Assembly: GCA_965649115.1 (NCBI GenBank)
Contig: CBFGJN010000062.1
Coordinates: 1-10,611, forward strand
Length of the DNA: 10,611 nt
Reading direction: 5' to 3'
Source: a candidate division WOR-3 bacterium
GTDB taxonomy: Bacteria; Hydrothermota; Hydrothermia; LBFQ01; DSFT01
Of this stretch, positions 1 through 10,611 are shown piece by piece. Every line of letters begins with the position of its first letter. Position 1 is the stretch's first letter. Below the pieces are notes generated by a model. It ran no database searches and had not been told where the DNA came from. It saw only the letters and a list, made by a program, of their open reading frames with translations. The translations under genes and the position numbers were made by a program.

Positions 1-102
1 GCGGAGCCCCCCATTAAAACCCCCCTAAAAATCAATAATTTTCTTGAAAATTTTATAAGTAATTGATTATCAGACATTTAGCAATAATTACTAGACAAAC
101 CA
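1..102 (+). mobile_element. MITE-like repeat, copy 1 (right part; truncated by window start)
   Basis: Ends in AATTACTAGACAAACCA (86-102), whose reverse complement TGGTTTGTCTAGTAATT matches the family TIR. CCCATTAAAACCCCC is shared with 10588-10602. ATAAGTAATTGATTATCAG (55-73) matches 2987-3005 at 18/19. Confidence 0.75.
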
Positions 103-111
103 AATTTATAA

Positions 112-240
112 TGCTGTGTCTAATAATTCTAAAAATATCTTATTTTCTTTATTTTTCCCACCCACCCTACGAAATAAGACTATGCCTTTATAATGCTCAT
201 ATTTTCAGCTTTGGGAGCTTCTCCCCCCTTAAAAAACTTA
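112..240 (+). mobile_element. MITE-like repeat, copy 2 (left part, no right TIR)
   Basis: Starts with TGCTGTGTCTAATAATT (112-128), 15/17 identical to the terminus of the 8653-8808 copy. It continues collinearly with that copy: TATTTTTCCCACCCACCCTACGAAATAAG vs TATTTTCCCCACTCACCCTGAAATTAAG, then ATAATGCTCATATTTT vs ATAAATGCCCATTTTT. Right boundary is approximate. Confidence 0.75.
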
Positions 241-247
241 AAACTAT

Positions 248-2917
248 TTATTTAGAAATATAAAGGAATTTAAACTTTTCCTTTTTAAAGTCAGTCTCTA
301 CATCTAACAAATATATACCTTTTGATTTAAAATTAAGAGGAATTCTATTTATTCCTTTTTCAAGTTTATCATTTATTTCAAGCAATTTTCTTCCATCAAC
401 TGAATATGCAATAATTTTAACATTAGTTCTGTTATTTGTTGATATTTCAATAAAGTTAGTTTTTAGTTTAATATAGTTTTTGTAAATTTTGTTTTCTGAA
501 ATATCTGTAAGTAATGTATCATAAACAATTCTCATCATAAGATTGCCATAGAACATAGGGTTAAATCCTGGATTGCTTGGTCCTTGCCAATACCAATAGC
601 TTGAAGAATCAGAAAATGGTGTTTCATCAAAATTATCATCAAAACCAATATAAGGTGTACTTGGGTAGTTTTGAAGGTAGTTTAAAGCTAACCATACTTT
701 TGTTCCACCAGCTACTTTTTGATTTACATTAAATTCAAACCATCCTTGATAATTTCCGATTGTAATTGTTTGAGGTGGAATTATGAAGTTTGATAATGAT
801 GGAAGGGAAGAGCTATCGGAATTTAGAGAAATTTGAAATTGTGTTGTTTGTGGAGAGTAGATATAAAGTTTTAGCTTTCTTATTAAGAAAGTATCTTTAT
901 AAGTTGGAAATTTATAACCTTTAAAAAATTTATTGTTGTAAAAGTCGCTAGATACATAGTAAAAAGCATTTACTTCTCCATCATCTCCAATTAATTCCAT
1001 CAGAGAATTTAAGTTTCTAATTGTTGTATCATTGTTTGTAAAATAGTCATCAATAGTATTAGTAATAACTTTTAATTGATAATTTCCCCTTGGAAGTAGT
1101 GTCATATTCGTATTTGTTATTAGGACTTCTTGATGTTTTGGTATGAAAGCATTATTGCTGTCTTTAAAAACTTGATTATTAAACTGATCAGTTATTATAA
1201 AATAAACCTTTACATTGTCGTCATAAGAGCCGTTATTTTTGATTTTAGCATAAATTTTAAATGGATTGTATTCTGAGAATTCCAAGTAAGGATATATAAT
1301 TTTTTTAGGTGATATATCGTGGTAATTTATAGAGGTTCTTATTGCTCTGTTATTTGTTGTGTCTTGGTCTGATGGGTAGGATATAATATATTCAAAATCG
1401 TAAATTCCATATTGGCTTGGAACAAAATTCTTAAAATTGATTTGTAATTCACTATTTGGAGATATTGTTGAGACGATTGAGGAATCGGTATCTATAAGTG
1501 TTGAGTTGTAATAGATTTTTGTATATACTTTAAAGTTAGAAGCTGTATTTGAACCTACATTTTTTATCTTTATTATATTTTGGTAATTTTGGTTTGTTTG
1601 TAAGTCAGTAGGAGGAGAAACAATTTGACTAATAGCCAAATCTGTGCTATAAGGATCTATTATTTTAAAAGCATATACATATCCACCATTTCCAAAATCT
1701 CTTGCATGAGCAGCTTTACCACCTGCAATAGCATATCTACCATCTTTTGAAATTCTTGCTAAAAAACAAGAACCTTTTTCATTTAAATTTGTCGCATCAT
1801 CTGGGACATTTATTATGACATTTCCTAGTGAGTCATAAATAGTTATTAAATCTCCAAATGTTCCATTATATTTACCCCAAGAACATACTATCATTCTGCT
1901 TCCATCAGAAGATATTGAAACACTACTTACATAATCTCCATAATTATTATTTGACCATTTTAAAACTAACTGATTATTTGAAATTTCAAAGAAATGAACT
2001 GAACCTGCATCTGATGGAGAGTAAATATAAGTTCCTAAAATTATATATTTTCCATTATCTGATATGTCTCCATCTGTTATCCATTTTCCAGAACCAAGGT
2101 TATAACTTGAAAGCAGATTATATGTGCTTCCATTGAATTTATAAACATTTACAATTCCATTAAATCCATATTGTAAAAGGTAATCCCCACTTCCTGAAAG
2201 TTTTGCTGATGTTTGACCGTAATTGCTTATTGTGGAAATAACAGAACCATTTTGGGTATTTAGAACTGTTACTTTATAGTATTGACTTATAGCTATTTTT
2301 GAATTATCTAAACTAAAACTTACGCCATAAAATCCATAATCATTTGGATTAGCATTGTATGTCCAAAGAACTGATTTTGTTTGGTTATTTATATAAATTA
2401 CTTTATAATCATTTGTTAGAAGTACACTATAATTACCATCTGGGCTTACAAATGCATTAAACACATTTGAATTAGAATAGGAATAAATAGGATTTGGTGA
2501 TGAACTTTTCATAAAGTCAAAATCAGAGCCAAGCATTGAAACCGCTATCTTTTTGTTCCATCTTGATGGCCAGGCAAATAAGTCAGCCCACCATAAACCA
2601 CTTTTATAATATACCCAATCAGGATTTGAAGAACCATTAGTAAAATACCTACTAACTCTTTCATTATTTAATGTCCAACCTATAACTATTTCCGAACCAT
2701 CGTTGTAAATTCCTCCACTTTGAGCGATAGCATATAAATGGTTATTGTCAATCCAAAGAATTTGAGCAGAAAGGATAGAAGGATTAGTAGGTGTAGGTTT
2801 TGGAGTGTATGAACTTTCAGTTTTATAAGGTGTTTTATATCTTTGATAAAGAATTCCACTTATTCTGGTTGTTTCTACTTCAACTGATAAAATCCCTTGA
2901 TATAGTATAATAATCAT
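248..2917 (-). CDS. Secreted multidomain protein: WD40-like beta-propeller, two CARDB/Ig-like domains, C-terminal T9SS type A-like sorting domain
   Basis: 889-aa ORF. Propeller-type repeats (VSPDGNY, VSFSLDNSKIA, ISDNGKYI, ISSDGSRM, ISKDGRYA). Two CARDB-like units (DLAISQI..IKNVGS..DQDTTNN; DISPKKI..IKNNGS..DDYFTNND). The C-terminus VKIIAYSVDGRKL..SKGIYLLDVET..KF resembles the Por/T9SS C-terminal domain. Short hydrophobic N-terminus. Confidence 0.8.
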   Translation of the reverse strand: MIIILYQGILSVEVETTRISGILYQRYKTPYKTESSYTPKPTPTNPSILSAQILWIDNNHLYAIAQSGGIYNDGSEIVIGWTLNNERVSRYFTNGSSNPDWVYYKSGLWWADLFAWPSRWNKKIAVSMLGSDFDFMKSSSPNPIYSYSNSNVFNAFVSPDGNYSVLLTNDYKVIYINNQTKSVLWTYNANPNDYGFYGVSFSLDNSKIAISQYYKVTVLNTQNGSVISTISNYGQTSAKLSGSGDYLLQYGFNGIVNVYKFNGSTYNLLSSYNLGSGKWITDGDISDNGKYIILGTYIYSPSDAGSVHFFEISNNQLVLKWSNNNYGDYVSSVSISSDGSRMIVCSWGKYNGTFGDLITIYDSLGNVIINVPDDATNLNEKGSCFLARISKDGRYAIAGGKAAHARDFGNGGYVYAFKIIDPYSTDLAISQIVSPPTDLQTNQNYQNIIKIKNVGSNTASNFKVYTKIYYNSTLIDTDSSIVSTISPNSELQINFKNFVPSQYGIYDFEYIISYPSDQDTTNNRAIRTSINYHDISPKKIIYPYLEFSEYNPFKIYAKIKNNGSYDDNVKVYFIITDQFNNQVFKDSNNAFIPKHQEVLITNTNMTLLPRGNYQLKVITNTIDDYFTNNDTTIRNLNSLMELIGDDGEVNAFYYVSSDFYNNKFFKGYKFPTYKDTFLIRKLKLYIYSPQTTQFQISLNSDSSSLPSLSNFIIPPQTITIGNYQGWFEFNVNQKVAGGTKVWLALNYLQNYPSTPYIGFDDNFDETPFSDSSSYWYWQGPSNPGFNPMFYGNLMMRIVYDTLLTDISENKIYKNYIKLKTNFIEISTNNRTNVKIIAYSVDGRKLLEINDKLEKGINRIPLNFKSKGIYLLDVETDFKKEKFKFLYISK

Positions 2918-2923
2918 TCTGAA

Positions 2924-2929
2924 ATTTTA
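2924..2929 (-). promoter_or_regulatory. Putative -10 element (TAAAAT) 6 nt upstream of the ATG
   Basis: Minus strand reads GCTTTAAAATTTCAGA-ATG; the same motif precedes four other units. Confidence 0.55.
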
Positions 2930-2939
2930 AAGCATTTTA

Positions 2940-3034
2940 TTTATTCGGCTTTGGGGGGCTAAATCTATAATTTAATCAATTTTTTCATAAGTTATTGATT
3001 ATCAGGGACTTAACATCATTTACTAGATAACGAA
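2940..3034 (+). mobile_element. MITE-like repeat, copy 3 (degenerate middle and right part)
   Basis: TTCGGCTTTG is shared with 10575-10584 and is followed by a G-run. 2987-3005 matches copy 1 at 18/19. Ends in TTACTAGATAACGAA, resembling the right TIR TTACTAGACAAACCA. Confidence 0.65.
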
Positions 3035-3080
3035 AATCTCAAAAATGACAACCCCTCTGAAACTTATTAATTTCTTTTAT

Positions 3081-4064
3081 TTATTTCAATGCTTTTAAAA
3101 CACTTTCAATAATGATTTCTTCATTTATGTTTTCTAAACATATTGGAACGGAAAAACGACATTTATTTTTCAAACATGGAGAACAATCTAAATTTATTCT
3201 TATAACTTTCAGAAATTGTTTATTATAAGGAGCTGTATTATTTTCATCACCTGCTCCAAATAAGACAATTGTTTTTATATTTAGTGCATTTGAAAGATGA
3301 GCTGGACCTGAATCAGTTGAGAGCATTAAATCACAGGCTTTTAAAATTTTAGCAAGTTCAATTAAATTAGTTTTTCCTGCTAAGTTTATAATTTTATCCT
3401 TGTTTTTTAGTGTTTCAATTAACCAATAAACTCTTTTAGTGTCTTTTTTTGAACCTGTTAAGATAAAGTAAGCGTCTATTTCTCTTTTTAGGGTTTCTAT
3501 GATTTTAGCCCACTTCGGAATTGACATTCTTCTACTTTCTGCTTCTGAATTTATATTTATAGCAATTTTATATTTTGAATTTAGTTTTATTATTTCTTCA
3601 TCAGGTTCAACATTTAGTTTCAAGTTTATATTTTCAATTGGATTTTTAATAAAATCTTTTAGTAAATAGCAATATTCTTCAACTCTATGTAAATTTTTTG
3701 GTTTTTTGTAGGCTCTTGTAAGTAAAAAATTTCTCAGTTCATTTCTATAACCTATTCTTTCCTTTGCATTTAGAAAATAACCTATTAGTGCACTTGAAAA
3801 CGAATTTGGAAGAGAAAAATAAATATCAAATTTTTCATTTATTTCTTTTGCCCATTTATATATTCCGAAAAATCCTTTGTATTGATGTTTTGAGAAATAA
3901 TAAATCCTCTCAAAATTTCCAAATAAATTTAATAATTCACCAATTTCAGGTTTTACAATAGCATAAATTTTTGCATCTTTAAAAGTTTCTTTAAGTTTGT
4001 TATAAAATCCATTAGACATAACTAAATCGCCTAACCAATTTGGAAATTTTATTGCTATTTTCAA
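3081..4064 (-). CDS. waaF: Lipopolysaccharide heptosyltransferase II (glycosyltransferase family 9)
   Basis: N-terminal PNWLGDLVM, then PNSFSSA, RIGY, NLAGKTNL, TDSGPAHL, LFG and a C-terminal CSPC..C..C cluster, all typical of GT9/WaaF. TTG start. Confidence 0.88.
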   Translation of the reverse strand: MKIAIKFPNWLGDLVMSNGFYNKLKETFKDAKIYAIVKPEIGELLNLFGNFERIYYFSKHQYKGFFGIYKWAKEINEKFDIYFSLPNSFSSALIGYFLNAKERIGYRNELRNFLLTRAYKKPKNLHRVEEYCYLLKDFIKNPIENINLKLNVEPDEEIIKLNSKYKIAININSEAESRRMSIPKWAKIIETLKREIDAYFILTGSKKDTKRVYWLIETLKNKDKIINLAGKTNLIELAKILKACDLMLSTDSGPAHLSNALNIKTIVLFGAGDENNTAPYNKQFLKVIRINLDCSPCLKNKCRFSVPICLENINEEIIIESVLKALK

Positions 4065-4072
4065 GTTTCAAA

Positions 4073-4078
4073 ATTTTA
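4073..4078 (-). promoter_or_regulatory. Putative -10 element (TAAAAT) 8 nt upstream of the waaF TTG start
   Basis: Minus strand reads GCATTAAAATTTTGAAAC-TTG. Confidence 0.45.
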
Positions 4079-4100
4079 ATGCTGTACTTTTGCCTTCGGC

Positions 4101-4190
4101 TGCCTTGTCCAACCACCCAAAAATAAGCTTTTCCGCTTCCTAACGCCCCCATTGACTATCAATGAATTGATACTATTGTTTTAATGGGGG
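4101..4190 (+). mobile_element. MITE-like repeat, copy 4 (internally deleted and rearranged)
   Basis: TGCCTTGTCCAA (TIR-like) is fused directly to CCACCCAAAAATAAG, as expected from a deletion between the two CAA microhomologies seen in the 10485 copy. GTTTTAATGGGGG (4178-4190) is the exact reverse complement of CCCCCATTAAAAC (8-20). Confidence 0.55.
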
Positions 4191-4213
4191 TTTTTAAGGA
4201 TAGAAATATTAAC

Positions 4214-6932
<2,719 letters not shown>

Positions 6933-6946
6933 AACTTCAATTAATT

Positions 6947-7007
6947 CCCCCCGAAAAACTATAATTTCAAAAAAATTTTTATAACTCATTATTTAGTGGA
7001 CAAAAAA
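6947..7007 (+). repeat. Highly degenerate right-end remnant of the MITE-like repeat (copy 5)
   Basis: CCCCCCGAAAAACTATAATTTCAAAAAAATTTTTATAA parallels CCCCCCTAAAAATCAATAATTTTCTTGAAAATTTTATAA of copy 1. TTAGTGGACAAA resembles the TIR (TTACTAGACAAA / TTATTGGATAAA). The sequence is AT-rich, so support is weaker. Confidence 0.45.
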
Positions 7008-7016
7008 TTTTTGCTT

Positions 7017-7022
7017 TAAAAT
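7017..7022 (+). promoter_or_regulatory. Putative -10 element (TAAAAT) 12 nt upstream of the miaB ATG
   Basis: TGCTTTAAAATTTAAAAACTTTT-ATG, with no Shine-Dalgarno. Confidence 0.45.
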
Positions 7023-7034
7023 TTAAAAACTTTT

Positions 7035-8318
7035 ATGAAAACCTTTTATATTAAAACATTTGGTTGTCAAATGAACGAACTTGATAGTGAGCTTATAAGA
7101 CAAAAACTTTTAAGTGAAGGATATATTGAAGTTGAAAATGAAAAAAATGCTGAAATTATTTTAATAAATACTTGTTCTGTTAGAAGAAAAGCTGAGGAAA
7201 AAGCAATCCATTATTCAAGAGAAATGAAAAACAAAAAGAAAACTGTTGTAATGCTTGGTTGCTTAGCACAACATAAAGGAGAAGAATTACTTAAAATTGC
7301 AAAAGCTGATATTGTAATTGGAACAAAAAGTTATGAAAAAATAATTGATATTTTATTAGACTTTGAAAGAAAGCAAACAAAAAGAGCAATATGTGAAGAT
7401 TTAGGTATATTTCAACTTAAAAGTAGAAAAGTTAAAGAGGGAGAATTTTCAGCTTATGTAAATATTCAGCATGGATGTGATAACTTTTGTACATTCTGTG
7501 TTGTCCCTTATACACGAGGAAGAGAAGTTTCAAGAAAAGCAAGTGATATATTAGAAGAAATAAAACAACTTGAAGAGCAAGGAATTGTTGAAATTGTTTT
7601 ACTTGGACAAAATGTAGATTCCTATTTTGATGGAAAATATGATTTTTCGGATTTATTAAAACTAATTGAAGATGAAACAAAATATATAAGAAGAATAAAA
7701 TTTACAAGTCCAAATCCAAGAGATATAACGATGAAAGTAATAAGAACAATTGCTCAATCTGAAAAAATTGTCAGATGGATTCATTTGCCACTTCAAGCAG
7801 GTTCAAATAAAATTTTAAAAAGAATGAATAGAGGATATACAAAAGAAGAGTACATTTACCAAGCTTTAACAATAAGAGATATTATTAAAGATGTTAGTAT
7901 TACAACTGATATTATAGTAGGATTTCCTTCTGAAACAGACGAAGACTTTGAAGAAACTCTAGATGTTGTAAGAACAGTAAAATATGATGGTGCTTATATG
8001 TTCAAATACTCACCAAGAGAAGGAACACCAGCAAGTTTATTTAAAGAACAAATTGATAATGAAACAAAAGGGAGAAGATTAAGAAGACTTATAGATGAAG
8101 TTAATAAAGCAATCTCTGAAAGAAGAAAATTAATGATTAACAAAGAATATGAAGTTTTAGTTGAAAGCTATAATTCTAAGGATTTTGGTTATAGTTTAGG
8201 TAAAACATTTAACAACATATCAGTCTTAATCAAAGGATTTTTCAAACCAGGAACATTTCTAAAAGGAATTGTTAAAGATATAAAAGGACACACCCCTATT
8301 ATTGAAGTTAGAAATTGA
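7035..8318 (+). CDS. miaB: tRNA-2-methylthio-N6-dimethylallyladenosine synthase (radical SAM methylthiotransferase)
   Basis: UPF0004 cysteines TFGCQMNE.DS, NTCSVR, GCLAQ; radical SAM motif GCDNFCTFCVVPYTRGRE.SR; LLGQNV.SY; HLPLQAGS; TDIIVGFP.ET; YSPREGT; C-terminal TRAM-like region. Confidence 0.93.
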   Translation: MKTFYIKTFGCQMNELDSELIRQKLLSEGYIEVENEKNAEIILINTCSVRRKAEEKAIHYSREMKNKKKTVVMLGCLAQHKGEELLKIAKADIVIGTKSYEKIIDILLDFERKQTKRAICEDLGIFQLKSRKVKEGEFSAYVNIQHGCDNFCTFCVVPYTRGREVSRKASDILEEIKQLEEQGIVEIVLLGQNVDSYFDGKYDFSDLLKLIEDETKYIRRIKFTSPNPRDITMKVIRTIAQSEKIVRWIHLPLQAGSNKILKRMNRGYTKEEYIYQALTIRDIIKDVSITTDIIVGFPSETDEDFEETLDVVRTVKYDGAYMFKYSPREGTPASLFKEQIDNETKGRRLRRLIDEVNKAISERRKLMINKEYEVLVESYNSKDFGYSLGKTFNNISVLIKGFFKPGTFLKGIVKDIKGHTPIIEVRN

Positions 8319-8650
8319 AATCCATTGTTGAAGTTTTATTAAAAAGAAAGATGTATTATAAAGTCCTAAAAGCAATTTATGAGCTTAATAATGAGGGAAA
8401 AATGTCAGTAGGTGTTAGAAAATTGGGAGAAAAACTTGGATATAGAAATTTAATTTCAAAAATTTTAAAAAAACTACAAAATGAAGGATTAATTGAAATA
8501 GTCAATGAAAGAGTTAATAACAGAAAGCCAAGAAAAGTTGCTTATTTAACCCCAAAAGGAGAAATTCTTTTAAAAGAAGTAAAAAAAAGAAAAATTCTTA
8601 TATTAAGGCAGAAGTTAAAAAATATAAAAAAAGAAATTGACCATTTATAA
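8315..8650 (+). CDS. Small basic winged helix-turn-helix DNA-binding protein
   Basis: 111 aa and lysine-rich. VRKLGEKLG..LISKILKKLQNEGLIE followed by a wing and YLTPKGE, as in MarR/PadR/ArsR-like folds. The TTG start overlaps the miaB stop (TTGA). Confidence 0.7.
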   Translation: MKSIVEVLLKRKMYYKVLKAIYELNNEGKMSVGVRKLGEKLGYRNLISKILKKLQNEGLIEIVNERVNNRKPRKVAYLTPKGEILLKEVKKRKILILRQKLKNIKKEIDHL

Positions 8651-8652
8651 TT

Positions 8653-8808
8653 TGCTTTATCCAATAATTAAGGAAATTACTGATTTAACAGGGGGATTAT
8701 TAGGAGGGCTCTGTCCCCCATGGCATAAAAATGGGCATTTATAAGCCGAAGGCTTAATTTCAGGGTGAGTGGGGAAAATATAATATAGTTCCATTACTAG
8801 ACACAGCA
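8653..8808 (-). mobile_element. Complete 156-bp MITE-like element (copy 6) with TIRs and target-site duplication
   Basis: Left end TGCTTTATCCAATAATT (8653-8669); reverse complement of right end TGCTGTGTCTAGTAATG (8792-8808), 12/17 match. Flanked on both sides by TTTATAATT (8644-8652 and 8809-8817). No coding capacity. Orientation is opposite to the other copies. Confidence 0.82.
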
Positions 8809-8816
8809 TTTATAAT

Positions 8817-9233
8817 TTATCTTACTACTAAAACTGAGCAATGGGCATTATCTACAACTTTATCAACAGTTGCTCCAAGTATCCTTTTTAAATAGGAGTG
8901 TTTTTTTGTTCCAAGGACAATCAAATCAACATTTAATGTTTCTGCTACTTTCATTATAACATCAGAAGGCTTTCCAAACTCCAATAATATCTCATAATCT
9001 AAATTCCTGGATTTTAGCATTTCTTCTACTTTTTGAAGAATTTTTGAATAGAATTTTTTAGCTTGTCTTTTTGATTCCTCAATTTCGTCAATAGTTTGAA
9101 CATATTCTGGTATTCTACCAACAGTTAGAATATATACTTTACTTTTGAAAATCTCTGCTAATTCCAAAGCCTTTTTAAAGGCAAGCTCTGAACTTTCAGA
9201 ACCATCATATCCTAATAAAATTTTCTTAAACAT
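8817..9233 (-). CDS. Universal stress protein (UspA family)
   Basis: MFKKILLGYDGSE.S..A, GKPSDVI, DLIVLG, LGATVDKVV..AHCSVLVVR. A strong SD, AGGAGGTG, lies just upstream of the ATG. Confidence 0.95.
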   Translation of the reverse strand: MFKKILLGYDGSESSELAFKKALELAEIFKSKVYILTVGRIPEYVQTIDEIEESKRQAKKFYSKILQKVEEMLKSRNLDYEILLEFGKPSDVIMKVAETLNVDLIVLGTKKHSYLKRILGATVDKVVDNAHCSVLVVR

Positions 9234-9236
9234 TTT

Positions 9237-10391
9237 TCACCTCCTTATCTTAAATCTTCTTAAAGCTCTTTCATGCTTATAAATTGGTTTAAAGAAACTA
9301 TTGGCAATAATAGTTGGAATTAAAGCTGTCAAAATTACACAAACAACCAATACTGAATATTGCTCTCTATTTATAATTCCATTTTGAAGTCCAAAAAGTG
9401 CAGAAATTGTTCCAAATGTTAATCCTGTACTCATCATTAGTGTAGTATAAGCATTTACTCTTAGATTGAATTTAAATAAATAACCAAGTGGAAAAATACC
9501 CAAAAACTTAGCAACAATTTTTGAAAAGAAAAATATAACTACAAGTATAACAGAAGAAATAACAACTTTTAAATCAACCAAACTACCAGCTTTTAAGAAA
9601 TAAAATGGTGTTAAAATTGAAACTGCCGTTGCTCTCATTCTCCTTACTAATTCTTTATTTTTCATAAATTGATTTGCTAAAACAGCACCTATTATATAAG
9701 CAGGTAAAACTGCTTCAAGATAACCTTTTACCGCAAAAAATCCAAATAAAGCAATAATAACAAATGTAAATTTTACTTCTGGTTCAGATGGATGATTTTT
9801 TACCCATTTAAAAAAATAATTTGAAATAAATGGAATAATAGGCGTTAATACAATCATAAGAATTGAAAACAAATAAAACCAGAAATCAAATTTTGTAAAA
9901 ATAAGCCCTAATGCTATAACCGTTCCCAAATCATTTACAAAACAAGCAGCAAGTATAACCTTTCCAAGATTTGTTTCGTTCAAACCACTTTCAACCATTA
10001 CCGCATAAACAACAGCAACTGATGTAGTAGATAAAGCAATACCAGAGATTAAAGCTTGACTTAAATTCCAATTTAAAAAGAAGTAAGTTATAATTGAAAC
10101 AAAAATAAATGGAGCGAAAAAGCCAGCAAGACCTAAAAAAACTGACTCTTTCCAATATTTTTTTACAACTTCACTTTCAAGCTCAGCACCTGCCAAAAAT
10201 GTTAGAATTACAGCTCCAAAAGTCGCTAAGAAGCTTATCCATTCTGTAATTTCGGGCTTTATAGTATTTCCAGCAACAATACCAACTAAAAGTTCAATAA
10301 GTGAGGATGAGATATTTGTAATAAAAGCGGTTATGCTTGAAACAAAAACAAGGAAAAACCAAATGAAAATTTCCCACCAGAGTTTTTCCAT
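9237..10391 (-). CDS. Cation:proton antiporter (CPA/Na_H_Exchanger superfamily), about 12 TM, no KTN domain
   Basis: Highly hydrophobic 384-aa protein. ELLVGIVAG, LTFLAGAELE, ALSTTSVAVV, ILAACFVNDL, AYIIGAVL and PFYFLKAG match CPA2-type helices. Confidence 0.9.
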   Translation of the reverse strand: MEKLWWEIFIWFFLVFVSSITAFITNISSSLIELLVGIVAGNTIKPEITEWISFLATFGAVILTFLAGAELESEVVKKYWKESVFLGLAGFFAPFIFVSIITYFFLNWNLSQALISGIALSTTSVAVVYAVMVESGLNETNLGKVILAACFVNDLGTVIALGLIFTKFDFWFYLFSILMIVLTPIIPFISNYFFKWVKNHPSEPEVKFTFVIIALFGFFAVKGYLEAVLPAYIIGAVLANQFMKNKELVRRMRATAVSILTPFYFLKAGSLVDLKVVISSVILVVIFFFSKIVAKFLGIFPLGYLFKFNLRVNAYTTLMMSTGLTFGTISALFGLQNGIINREQYSVLVVCVILTALIPTIIANSFFKPIYKHERALRRFKIRR

Positions 10392-10394
10392 AAT

Positions 10395-10447
10395 TAGGCG
10401 TCATCATCCCACCTCTGGTGGGCGGTTAAGGGGAGACGCCATTCCCC
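10395..10447 (-). ncRNA. Fluoride riboswitch (crcB motif)
   Basis: Minus strand GGGGAATGGCGTCTCCCCTTAACCGCCCACCAGAGGTGGGATGATGACGCCTA. P1 GGGGA/TCCCC, pseudoknot GGCGTC/GACGCC, P2 CCCACC-AGA-GGTGGG. The conserved AUGG, AACCGC and GAUGAC..CUA segments match the crcB consensus. Confidence 0.93.
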
Positions 10448-10456
10448 AGTTTGAAA

Positions 10457-10486
10457 ATTTTAAAGCCTAAGGCCATATTTTGTCTG
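10457..10486 (-). promoter_or_regulatory. Putative promoter for the riboswitch operon: TAAAAT (10457-10462) with a weak -35 CAGACA (10481-10486), 18-nt spacer
   Basis: The -10 lies 9 nt upstream of the first base of aptamer P1, which would place the start site just before the aptamer. Confidence 0.5.
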
Positions 10487-10611
10487 CTTTGTCCAATAAT
10501 TCGGAAAGTATAGTTATTTCTATATTTTGCTCAACCACACTAAAATTAAGGCAGAGCCTTTAAAATACCCATATTTCGGCTTTGCCTCCCATTAAAACCC
10601 CCTATAAAATC
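10485..10611 (+). mobile_element. MITE-like repeat, copy 7 (left part; truncated by window end)
   Basis: Starts with TGCTTTGTCCAATAATT (10485-10501), 16/17 identical to 8653-8669. Then CAACCACACTAAAATTAAG, hairpin AAGGCAGAGCCTT, TTCGGCTTTG and CCCATTAAAACCCCCTATAAAATC, all collinear with the other copies. Confidence 0.78.

Follow-up and report, generated by a model that had tools for sequence, protein, structure and literature searches.

Why should one short repeat occupy every sizeable intergenic spacer in a stretch of bacterial DNA? The question is raised by a 10,611-bp contig of a candidate division WOR-3 bacterium (contig C62 of genome bin G000, hereafter the window), which carries eight genes and six sizeable spacers. 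The bin has 1.85 Mb in 99 contigs at 27.6% GC, and the metagenome runs in which the genome is best represented are hot-spring samples. [quoted passage not shown] A copy or fragment is present at the claimed coordinates in each of the six spacers, and all seven copies can be assigned to one family. From sequence comparison, the repeat is probably (about 0.8) a MITE of approximately 205 bp, mobilised in trans by a co-resident IS5-family (IS903-type) DDE transposase from an insertion sequence (IS) of about 1.04 kb and targeted to host promoters.

The proposal of a MITE at very high density is borne out by the TIRs, 9-bp target duplications, the number of genomic copies, and a cognate IS. A profile (nhmmer) built from 122 full-length copies has 734 matches in G000, covering 96,234 bp (5.2% of the genome) on 93 of the 99 contigs; the same profile has no matches in the reversed genome. 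Copies are found in 319 of 445 internal gaps of at least 100 bp, and the MITE makes up 44% of intergenic DNA, with 29 of 762 merged copies lying within open reading frames (ORFs) as called by crude gene prediction. Coding density is 0.89 in G000 compared to 0.96 in two MITE-free relatives. Pairing of TIR motifs gives a length mode of 203-207 bp, in agreement with an earlier estimate of about 200 bp at full length. In full copies with both flanks, the 9-bp duplication is exact in 53 of 114 and has one mismatch in 9 of 114; other duplication lengths give no comparable signal. Empty sites were identified as well: G000 is empty where locus L102 carries a copy, and window copy 6 is missing from a second species, G002. 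A search of 31 genomes with a single window copy gives matches in 5, namely G000, G002 (many places), G003 (one clear match), and two marginal cases, and the same TIR pattern recurs in a Candidatus Hydrothermia bin. The repeat matches no Rfam family.

The MITE has TIRs of approximately 17 bp, and median pairwise identity among copies is 78.5%. Conservation is uneven, with 92 of 205 columns at 95% or higher and 60 of 205 under 80%. At position 18 the ends of the MITE differ, the right one having C and the left one mostly A, and by analogy with elements described in PMC3942029 it is a candidate orientation determinant. The ATAAGTWATTGATTATCAG box consists of two inverted matches to the integration host factor (IHF) consensus WATCAANNNNTTR, as given in PMC5896051, and 73 of 122 copies have the two together. 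MITE copies account for 535 of the 905 genomic matches to this consensus, and the genome has three HU/IHF-family matches. The paired inverted box is a putative IHF-like site. In hairpin 1, one base pair is kept as C-G in 78 copies and as G-C in 40. Its loops are mostly GAA/GTA, and the loops of hairpin 2 are present in both orientations, patterns that fit DNA mini-hairpins. Linkage between variable sites, with hairpins and near-twins removed, falls with distance (r2 from 0.21 to 0.015), which indicates that the copies are recombinant mosaics.

Copies of the MITE stand at a fixed distance from a host promoter box. Read outward from intact right ends, the TAAAAT of a CTTTAAAATTTT box is found at a spacer of 22 nt in 126 of 260 cases and of 21 nt in 37 of 260; outward from left ends, the corresponding counts are 3 of 101 and 2 of 101. 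When gene context is included, the box lies at 21-23 nt from 168 of 264 outward right ends and at 13-17 nt from 45 of 264. The main peak is strand-specific and 1-2 nt wide (123 at 22, 38 at 21, 2 at 20, and 3 at 23), and the hexamer is TAAAAT in 152 of 168. The duplication is kept equally in the two registers (40 of 76 and 14 of 27). A second motif downstream, considered as the source of the 14-nt register, has weak enrichment (16 of 48 vs 28 of 164). Right ends of the partner IS have the box at the same offset in 11 of 16 cases, and three more abut a MITE. The offset recurs in G002 at 22 of 29 ends (683 kb examined). Viewed from the promoters, a copy faces 213 of the 461 boxes in G000.

The CTTTAAAATTTT box is a -10-type element of the host promoter and predates the MITE. 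In MITE-free genomes G004 (1.44 Mb) and G001 (0.4 Mb), it is located mostly 5-14 nt before start codons, and it precedes the first tRNAs in 32 of 39 and 29 of 35 cases (downstream controls 1 and 5). Upstream of 433 G004 promoters no -35 consensus was found. Since host promoters have no conserved -35 element, insertion upstream of the box should cost little, which would allow the family to reach 5% of a compact genome. At orthologous promoters, a copy may stand in one species where the other has none; of 22 sites that could be assessed, 5 are empty in G000. The suggestion that the repeat has been domesticated as regulatory DNA is not upheld: the box is host DNA in MITE-free relatives, orthologous promoters differ in occupancy between species, and displaced copies erode. 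Most promoters of the genus are -10-only and are followed 7-12 nt past the box by the start codon, which suggests largely leaderless mRNAs.

Non-autonomous elements depend on a transposase encoded elsewhere. The window has none, as had been stated, and window MITE copies contain no ORFs of at least 80 aa, but a search for a cognate IS with the same ends identified an IS5-family (IS903-type) element. Its ends are found at contig breaks of G000 (16 right and 10 left), and 6 of the 10 left ends share an identical 9-mer with a right end. The termini of protein P0004 match these IS ends at 90-100%. Metagenome locus L125 contains a complete relative of 1,040 bp, which encodes a 295-aa protein (P0001) that scores 227.6 bits on NF033579 (cut-off 140); the two flanks of this IS are unlike each other. 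Both P0001 and P0004 have PF13737 and PF01609 matches, and D/D/E motifs are visible in P0004. Sequence common to MITE and IS is confined to about 18-26 terminal bases. IS903 generates 9-bp duplications and has GGCTTTG ends. Ends of the present IS are GGCTTTG-like when compared with the table in PMC6382973. The nearest plasmid IS5 elements are approximately 31% identical and Aquificota homologs approximately 46%; no relatives were found in viral contigs. Searches of G000 with PF12762, PF13737, and PF01609 gave no matches because the assembly has collapsed the IS at contig ends, and a search with NF033579 gave two fragments. Clustering of the ORFs that adjoin element ends yielded no transposase.

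Other partners were considered and rejected. PF01609 matches in G005 and G006 have no match to G000, and their ends differ. The IS1595/IS1 families were set aside given the lack of a PF12762 match in G000 and the 9-bp duplication, the IS1595 family having duplications of 8 bp. A Mutator-like/IS256 transposase was not among the matches, which were to IS5 instead. In locus L200, a MITE lies inside its cognate transposase gene, and an antisense TATACT is found 21 nt from the right end of this copy.

Many promoters carry more than one copy. The 762 merged copies form 489 clusters, 184 of which have two to five members, and neighboring copies are co-oriented in 223 of 273 cases. Within stacks, 78 of 91 junctions measure 9 bp, and 28 of 60 repeat the outer 9-mer (shuffle mean 1.0, maximum 5). 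Tandem duplication was rejected as the source of the stacks, as neighbors are barely more alike (82% identity) than random copies (80%). Of 98 stacks with a box at one end, 88 have the better-scoring copy next to it; this proximal copy also leads in bits per base in 85 stacks, and in 77 (vs 20) its genomic twin is the closer one. Median profile scores by rank from the box are 155, 70, and 39. The most intact copy is thus nearest the promoter, and displaced copies erode. Stack polarity and 9-bp junctions are what re-insertion at a promoter-defined site predicts. Separately, CRISPR-like (clustered regularly interspaced short palindromic repeat) arrays with two repeat types are present at G000 contig ends C1, C32, C66, C74, and C4, and one CRISPR-like leader has G-run/T-run motifs that resemble the MITE interior.

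Across 272 genomes of the phylum, P0001 has matches in 5. The distant genome G255 (loci including L425, L433, and L405) has a related IS903-type IS and a 159-bp MITE, with 52 TIR matches. At 20 of 45 ends in the available loci, a TTGACA with no more than one mismatch begins 7-10 nt away (13 at position 9), one of the 45 being probably no true end; the shuffle mean is 1.1 (maximum 6), and windows further out give 0-4. TAnnnT follows 15-19 nt beyond the hexamer at 16 of the 21 ends that have the hexamer in a wider range. The transposase of G255 has an extra N-terminal helix-turn-helix without a counterpart in P0004, and its nearest full-length homolog, P0148, shares 37% identity with P0004. Similar longer transposases number at least 30.

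Taken together, the MITE shares its ends with the IS, inserts with a 9-bp stagger, has its right end 21-22 nt (about 14 nt in the second register) upstream of the box, and re-inserts at the same site, so that copies pile up head to tail and the intact one adjoins the promoter. In the proposed mechanism, the transposase would be guided to promoters, displaced copies would decay, and recombination between copies would produce mosaics. As to how promoters are found, our preferred route, to which we give roughly even odds, is that the transposase docks on promoter-bound sigma70 RNA polymerase. Docking is favored because each element tracks the promoter motif of its own host.

Several points weigh against promoter targeting as set out here. 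The evidence consists of present-day positions, which selection has already filtered. At 51 of 264 outward right ends there is no box, including window copy 6, which has a perfect duplication, and a matching duplication is found in only 84 of 170 two-ended copies, leaving about half without. The two registers (22 and about 14 nt) need explaining. No complete transposase gene is assembled in G000. The G255 element stands approximately 31 nt from the -10 and uses either end, compared to 22 nt and one end in G000, so a single fixed docking geometry fits poorly. One G255 insertion is at a TTGACA within a gene and has no -10, and a related IS in G013 has no fixed motif at its 12 ends as judged by eye.

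The strongest alternative keeps the element and its targeting but has the transposase read promoter DNA sequence or shape directly, without a host protein. It is plausible, at somewhat less than even odds. The host box is nearly invariant, and direct reading is favored because offsets to the -10 differ between genomes (22 nt in G000, about 31 nt in G255) and because the TTGACA insertion in G255 is intragenic; the extra helix-turn-helix, present in the G255 transposase and not in P0004, is also in line with it. However, two transposases that are 37% identical (P0004 compared with P0148) each track the promoter motif of their own host, and none of 334 antisense copies of the motif inside genes is occupied by a MITE, although selection could equally explain the latter.

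Near-random insertion into AT-rich DNA is a further alternative, in which selection would leave copies in spacers or copies whose TIR supplies a -35-like hexamer (domestication). A preference for AT-rich DNA is described for MITEAba12, whose ends are similar and which also makes 9-bp duplications (PMC6382973); IS903 and ISAba13 are drawn to H-NS-bound DNA (10.1101/2024.02.16.580519); and the right TIR contains TAGACA/TGGACA, which in the 13-15 register would fall 18-20 nt from the -10. In the main register, however, the TIR hexamer is 27 nt from the -10, and host promoters have no -35 consensus. Selection alone is insufficient because the peak is 1-2 nt wide and strand-specific; stacks with the same 9-mer require repeated choice of one site, and recent identical IS copies show the same offset. 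We consider this alternative improbable and already largely refuted.

Mis-joined repeats in a short-read metagenome bin could make stacks, mosaics, and broken duplications, and 99 of 198 contig ends carry a copy and several orphan 9-mer matches involve contig ends, but such an artefact is very improbable given a median pairwise identity of only 78.5%, the same offset in G002, and contigs from another assembler that bridge copies 3 and 5 (X2, no differences) and copies 3 and 4 (X1), in runs that are possibly the source sample. No independent assembly at 97% identity or higher was found among the metagenome loci. Artefact could touch the mosaic and shuffling claims, not targeting.

Among the closest known systems is the MITEAba12/ISAba12 group of Acinetobacter, with a 113-bp MITE in 90 copies over 31 genomes and a preference for AT-rich DNA (PMC6382973). 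Like the present MITE, MITEAba12 is non-coding, shares only its ends with a single-ORF IS of about 1.04 kb, and makes a 9-bp duplication (PMC6382973). Its TIR as printed there, GGCTTTGTTGCATAAA, matches the left end of the present MITE at 12 of 16 positions by our comparison. The present MITE differs in its length of 205 bp, its more than 700 copies in one genome, and its fixed offset and orientation to promoters. For targeting, the nearest likeness is to the TnGBS/ISLre2/ISKra4 elements (Mutator-like p-MULT), in which an oriented right end lies at a fixed distance upstream of housekeeping promoters (PMC3942029). There, orientation is ascribed to unequal inverted repeats, and contact with RNA polymerase is offered as a proposal; the offset is 15-17 bp upstream of sigmaA promoters, whereas here it is measured to a -10-only box (PMC3942029). 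The enzymes also differ, a Mutator-like transposase in p-MULT and an IS5 transposase (NF033579/PF13737) here. PMC3942029 nowhere uses the word MITE. IS903 and ISAba13 have a transposase of the same family (IS5), but they are described as captured by H-NS-bound DNA and not as standing at a fixed promoter distance (10.1101/2024.02.16.580519).

ERIC and Correia elements are likened here by description, and no sequence relation is claimed. ERIC reaches a comparable copy number (711 in Photorhabdus), and Correia elements lie upstream of genes and have an IHF site, although Correia supplies its own promoter and the present MITE is placed at that of the host (PMC10969869). Double insertion at one site, seen for the P-element, R1, and bacterial dimers, likewise gives tandem copies separated by the target duplication (10.1101/158386); here, it concerns more than 100 promoters with consistent age polarity. 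MITEs with such ends, copy numbers near 700, and double insertion have already been described in the literature compared, which includes PMC6382973, PMC10969869, PMC9208149, and 10.1101/158386. No report of fixed-distance promoter homing was found for IS5 in the open-access literature searched; the only case found there is Mutator-like (PMC3942029). The element is of an ordinary kind, and its targeting rule is unusual and well supported. A single-protein IS5 transposase of 300 aa that homes to promoters at hundreds of natural sites, together with a relative at another promoter element, makes the question of mechanism testable. Targeting accounts for how a MITE fills 44% of the intergenic DNA of a compact genome, and its insertions map promoters in an uncultured lineage. 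An insertion rule that spares genes could serve as a tool.

MITE copies may also contribute to genome rearrangement. In G004, the gene blocks that the copies separate in the window are spread over five different contigs, and compared to G004, junctions with a MITE are broken in 127 of 129 cases and box junctions without one in 62 of 106. This contrast vanishes when free space is controlled, as breakage also affects 28 of 29 MITE-free junctions that have ample room. Between MITE-free G001 and G004, 40 of 50 promoter junctions in co-directional genes differ, which is unusually high shuffling at operon boundaries. Against the closer genome G002, the excess is modest, at 37 of 64 compared to 4 of 16 (P=0.025). 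Paired losses are 16 vs 0. Orphan 9-mers match other clusters in 19 of 84 cases, compared to 2.6 by shuffle, some of them at contig ends. The evidence for MITE-driven shuffling is suggestive only. A more general proposal, which is tentative, is that the IS903-type branch docks on promoter-bound housekeeping RNA polymerase and follows the promoter design of each host, be it the -10-only box of G000 or the TTGACA of G255, that promoters consequently grow polarized CRISPR-like stacks in which successive insertions are recorded, and that recombination between copies reshuffles intact promoter-plus-operon modules.

Within the window, the canonical promoter-anchored case is copy 7 (10485-10611, - strand; strands of MITE copies follow the orientation of the IS from its left to its right end). 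It matches model positions 1-135 at 80 bits, has an intact right TIR, and runs off the contig end. The 9-bp target adjoining it is at 10476-10484, with its partner beyond the contig end, and the host promoter box at 10454-10465 (-) has its TAAAAT at 10462-10457, exactly 22 nt from the right end of the copy. A fluoride riboswitch follows at 10388-10455 (-; Rfam RF01734, 47.3 bits, cut-off 34), the sole strong Rfam match, leading cation/proton antiporter (PF00999) and Usp genes. It is an independent marker of the transcription start.

Copies 1 and 2 form a two-copy stack, copy 1 being promoter-proximal and copy 2 distal. Copy 1 (1-102, -; model 105-204, 70 bits) comprises the left-end half, which includes the paired IHF-like box and, at 86-102, the left TIR; it runs off the contig end. 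The 9-bp spacer at 103-111 is the expected target duplication, its partner lying beyond the contig end. Copy 2 (112-240, -; model 1-121, 71 bits) has an intact right TIR at 112 and an eroded left part. The profile matches copies 1, 2, 3, 6, and 7 at E 4e-31 to 2e-10, well within a threshold of E<1e-3; copies 4 (8.9 bits) and 5 (14.1 bits) are weak but exceed 150 intergenic windows of a MITE-free relative (maximum 3.7).

Copies 3, 4, and 5 are remnants beside promoter boxes, which were recognized from sequence using a motif validated elsewhere in the genome set. Copy 3 (2940-3034, -; model 91-202, 40.5 bits) has lost its right end, and the remnant faces the box at 2921-2932 (-) of the 889-aa gene. 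Copy 4 (4101-4199, reported earlier as 4101-4190) lies near the box at 4070-4081 (-) of a glycosyltransferase-9 gene and consists of two eroded fragments in opposite orientation; a collinear layout common to all copies, as first described, therefore fails for copy 4. Copy 5 (6947-7007, -) is an eroded left-end fragment between the divergent ligA (box 6924-6935, -) and a MiaB-like gene (box 7014-7025, +). Copy 6 (8653-8808, +; 108 bits) is internally deleted with both TIRs present, and its target duplications at 8644-8652 and 8809-8817 are identical. It is an off-promoter insertion between two convergent stop codons, and in G002 the same genes are adjacent with no copy between them.

In G002, a palindromic box at positions 2760-2800 of locus L371 (G002:C56), TTTAAAATTTTAAA, separates ligA from a divergently oriented ORF that is sigma-factor-like by eye, and this box may act as a bidirectional promoter. 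The neighbor of ligA at the equivalent site in G000 differs from that in G002. The 889-aa protein encoded at 248-2917 (-) of the window has beta-propeller-like and CARDB matches and a very short hydrophobic N-terminus.

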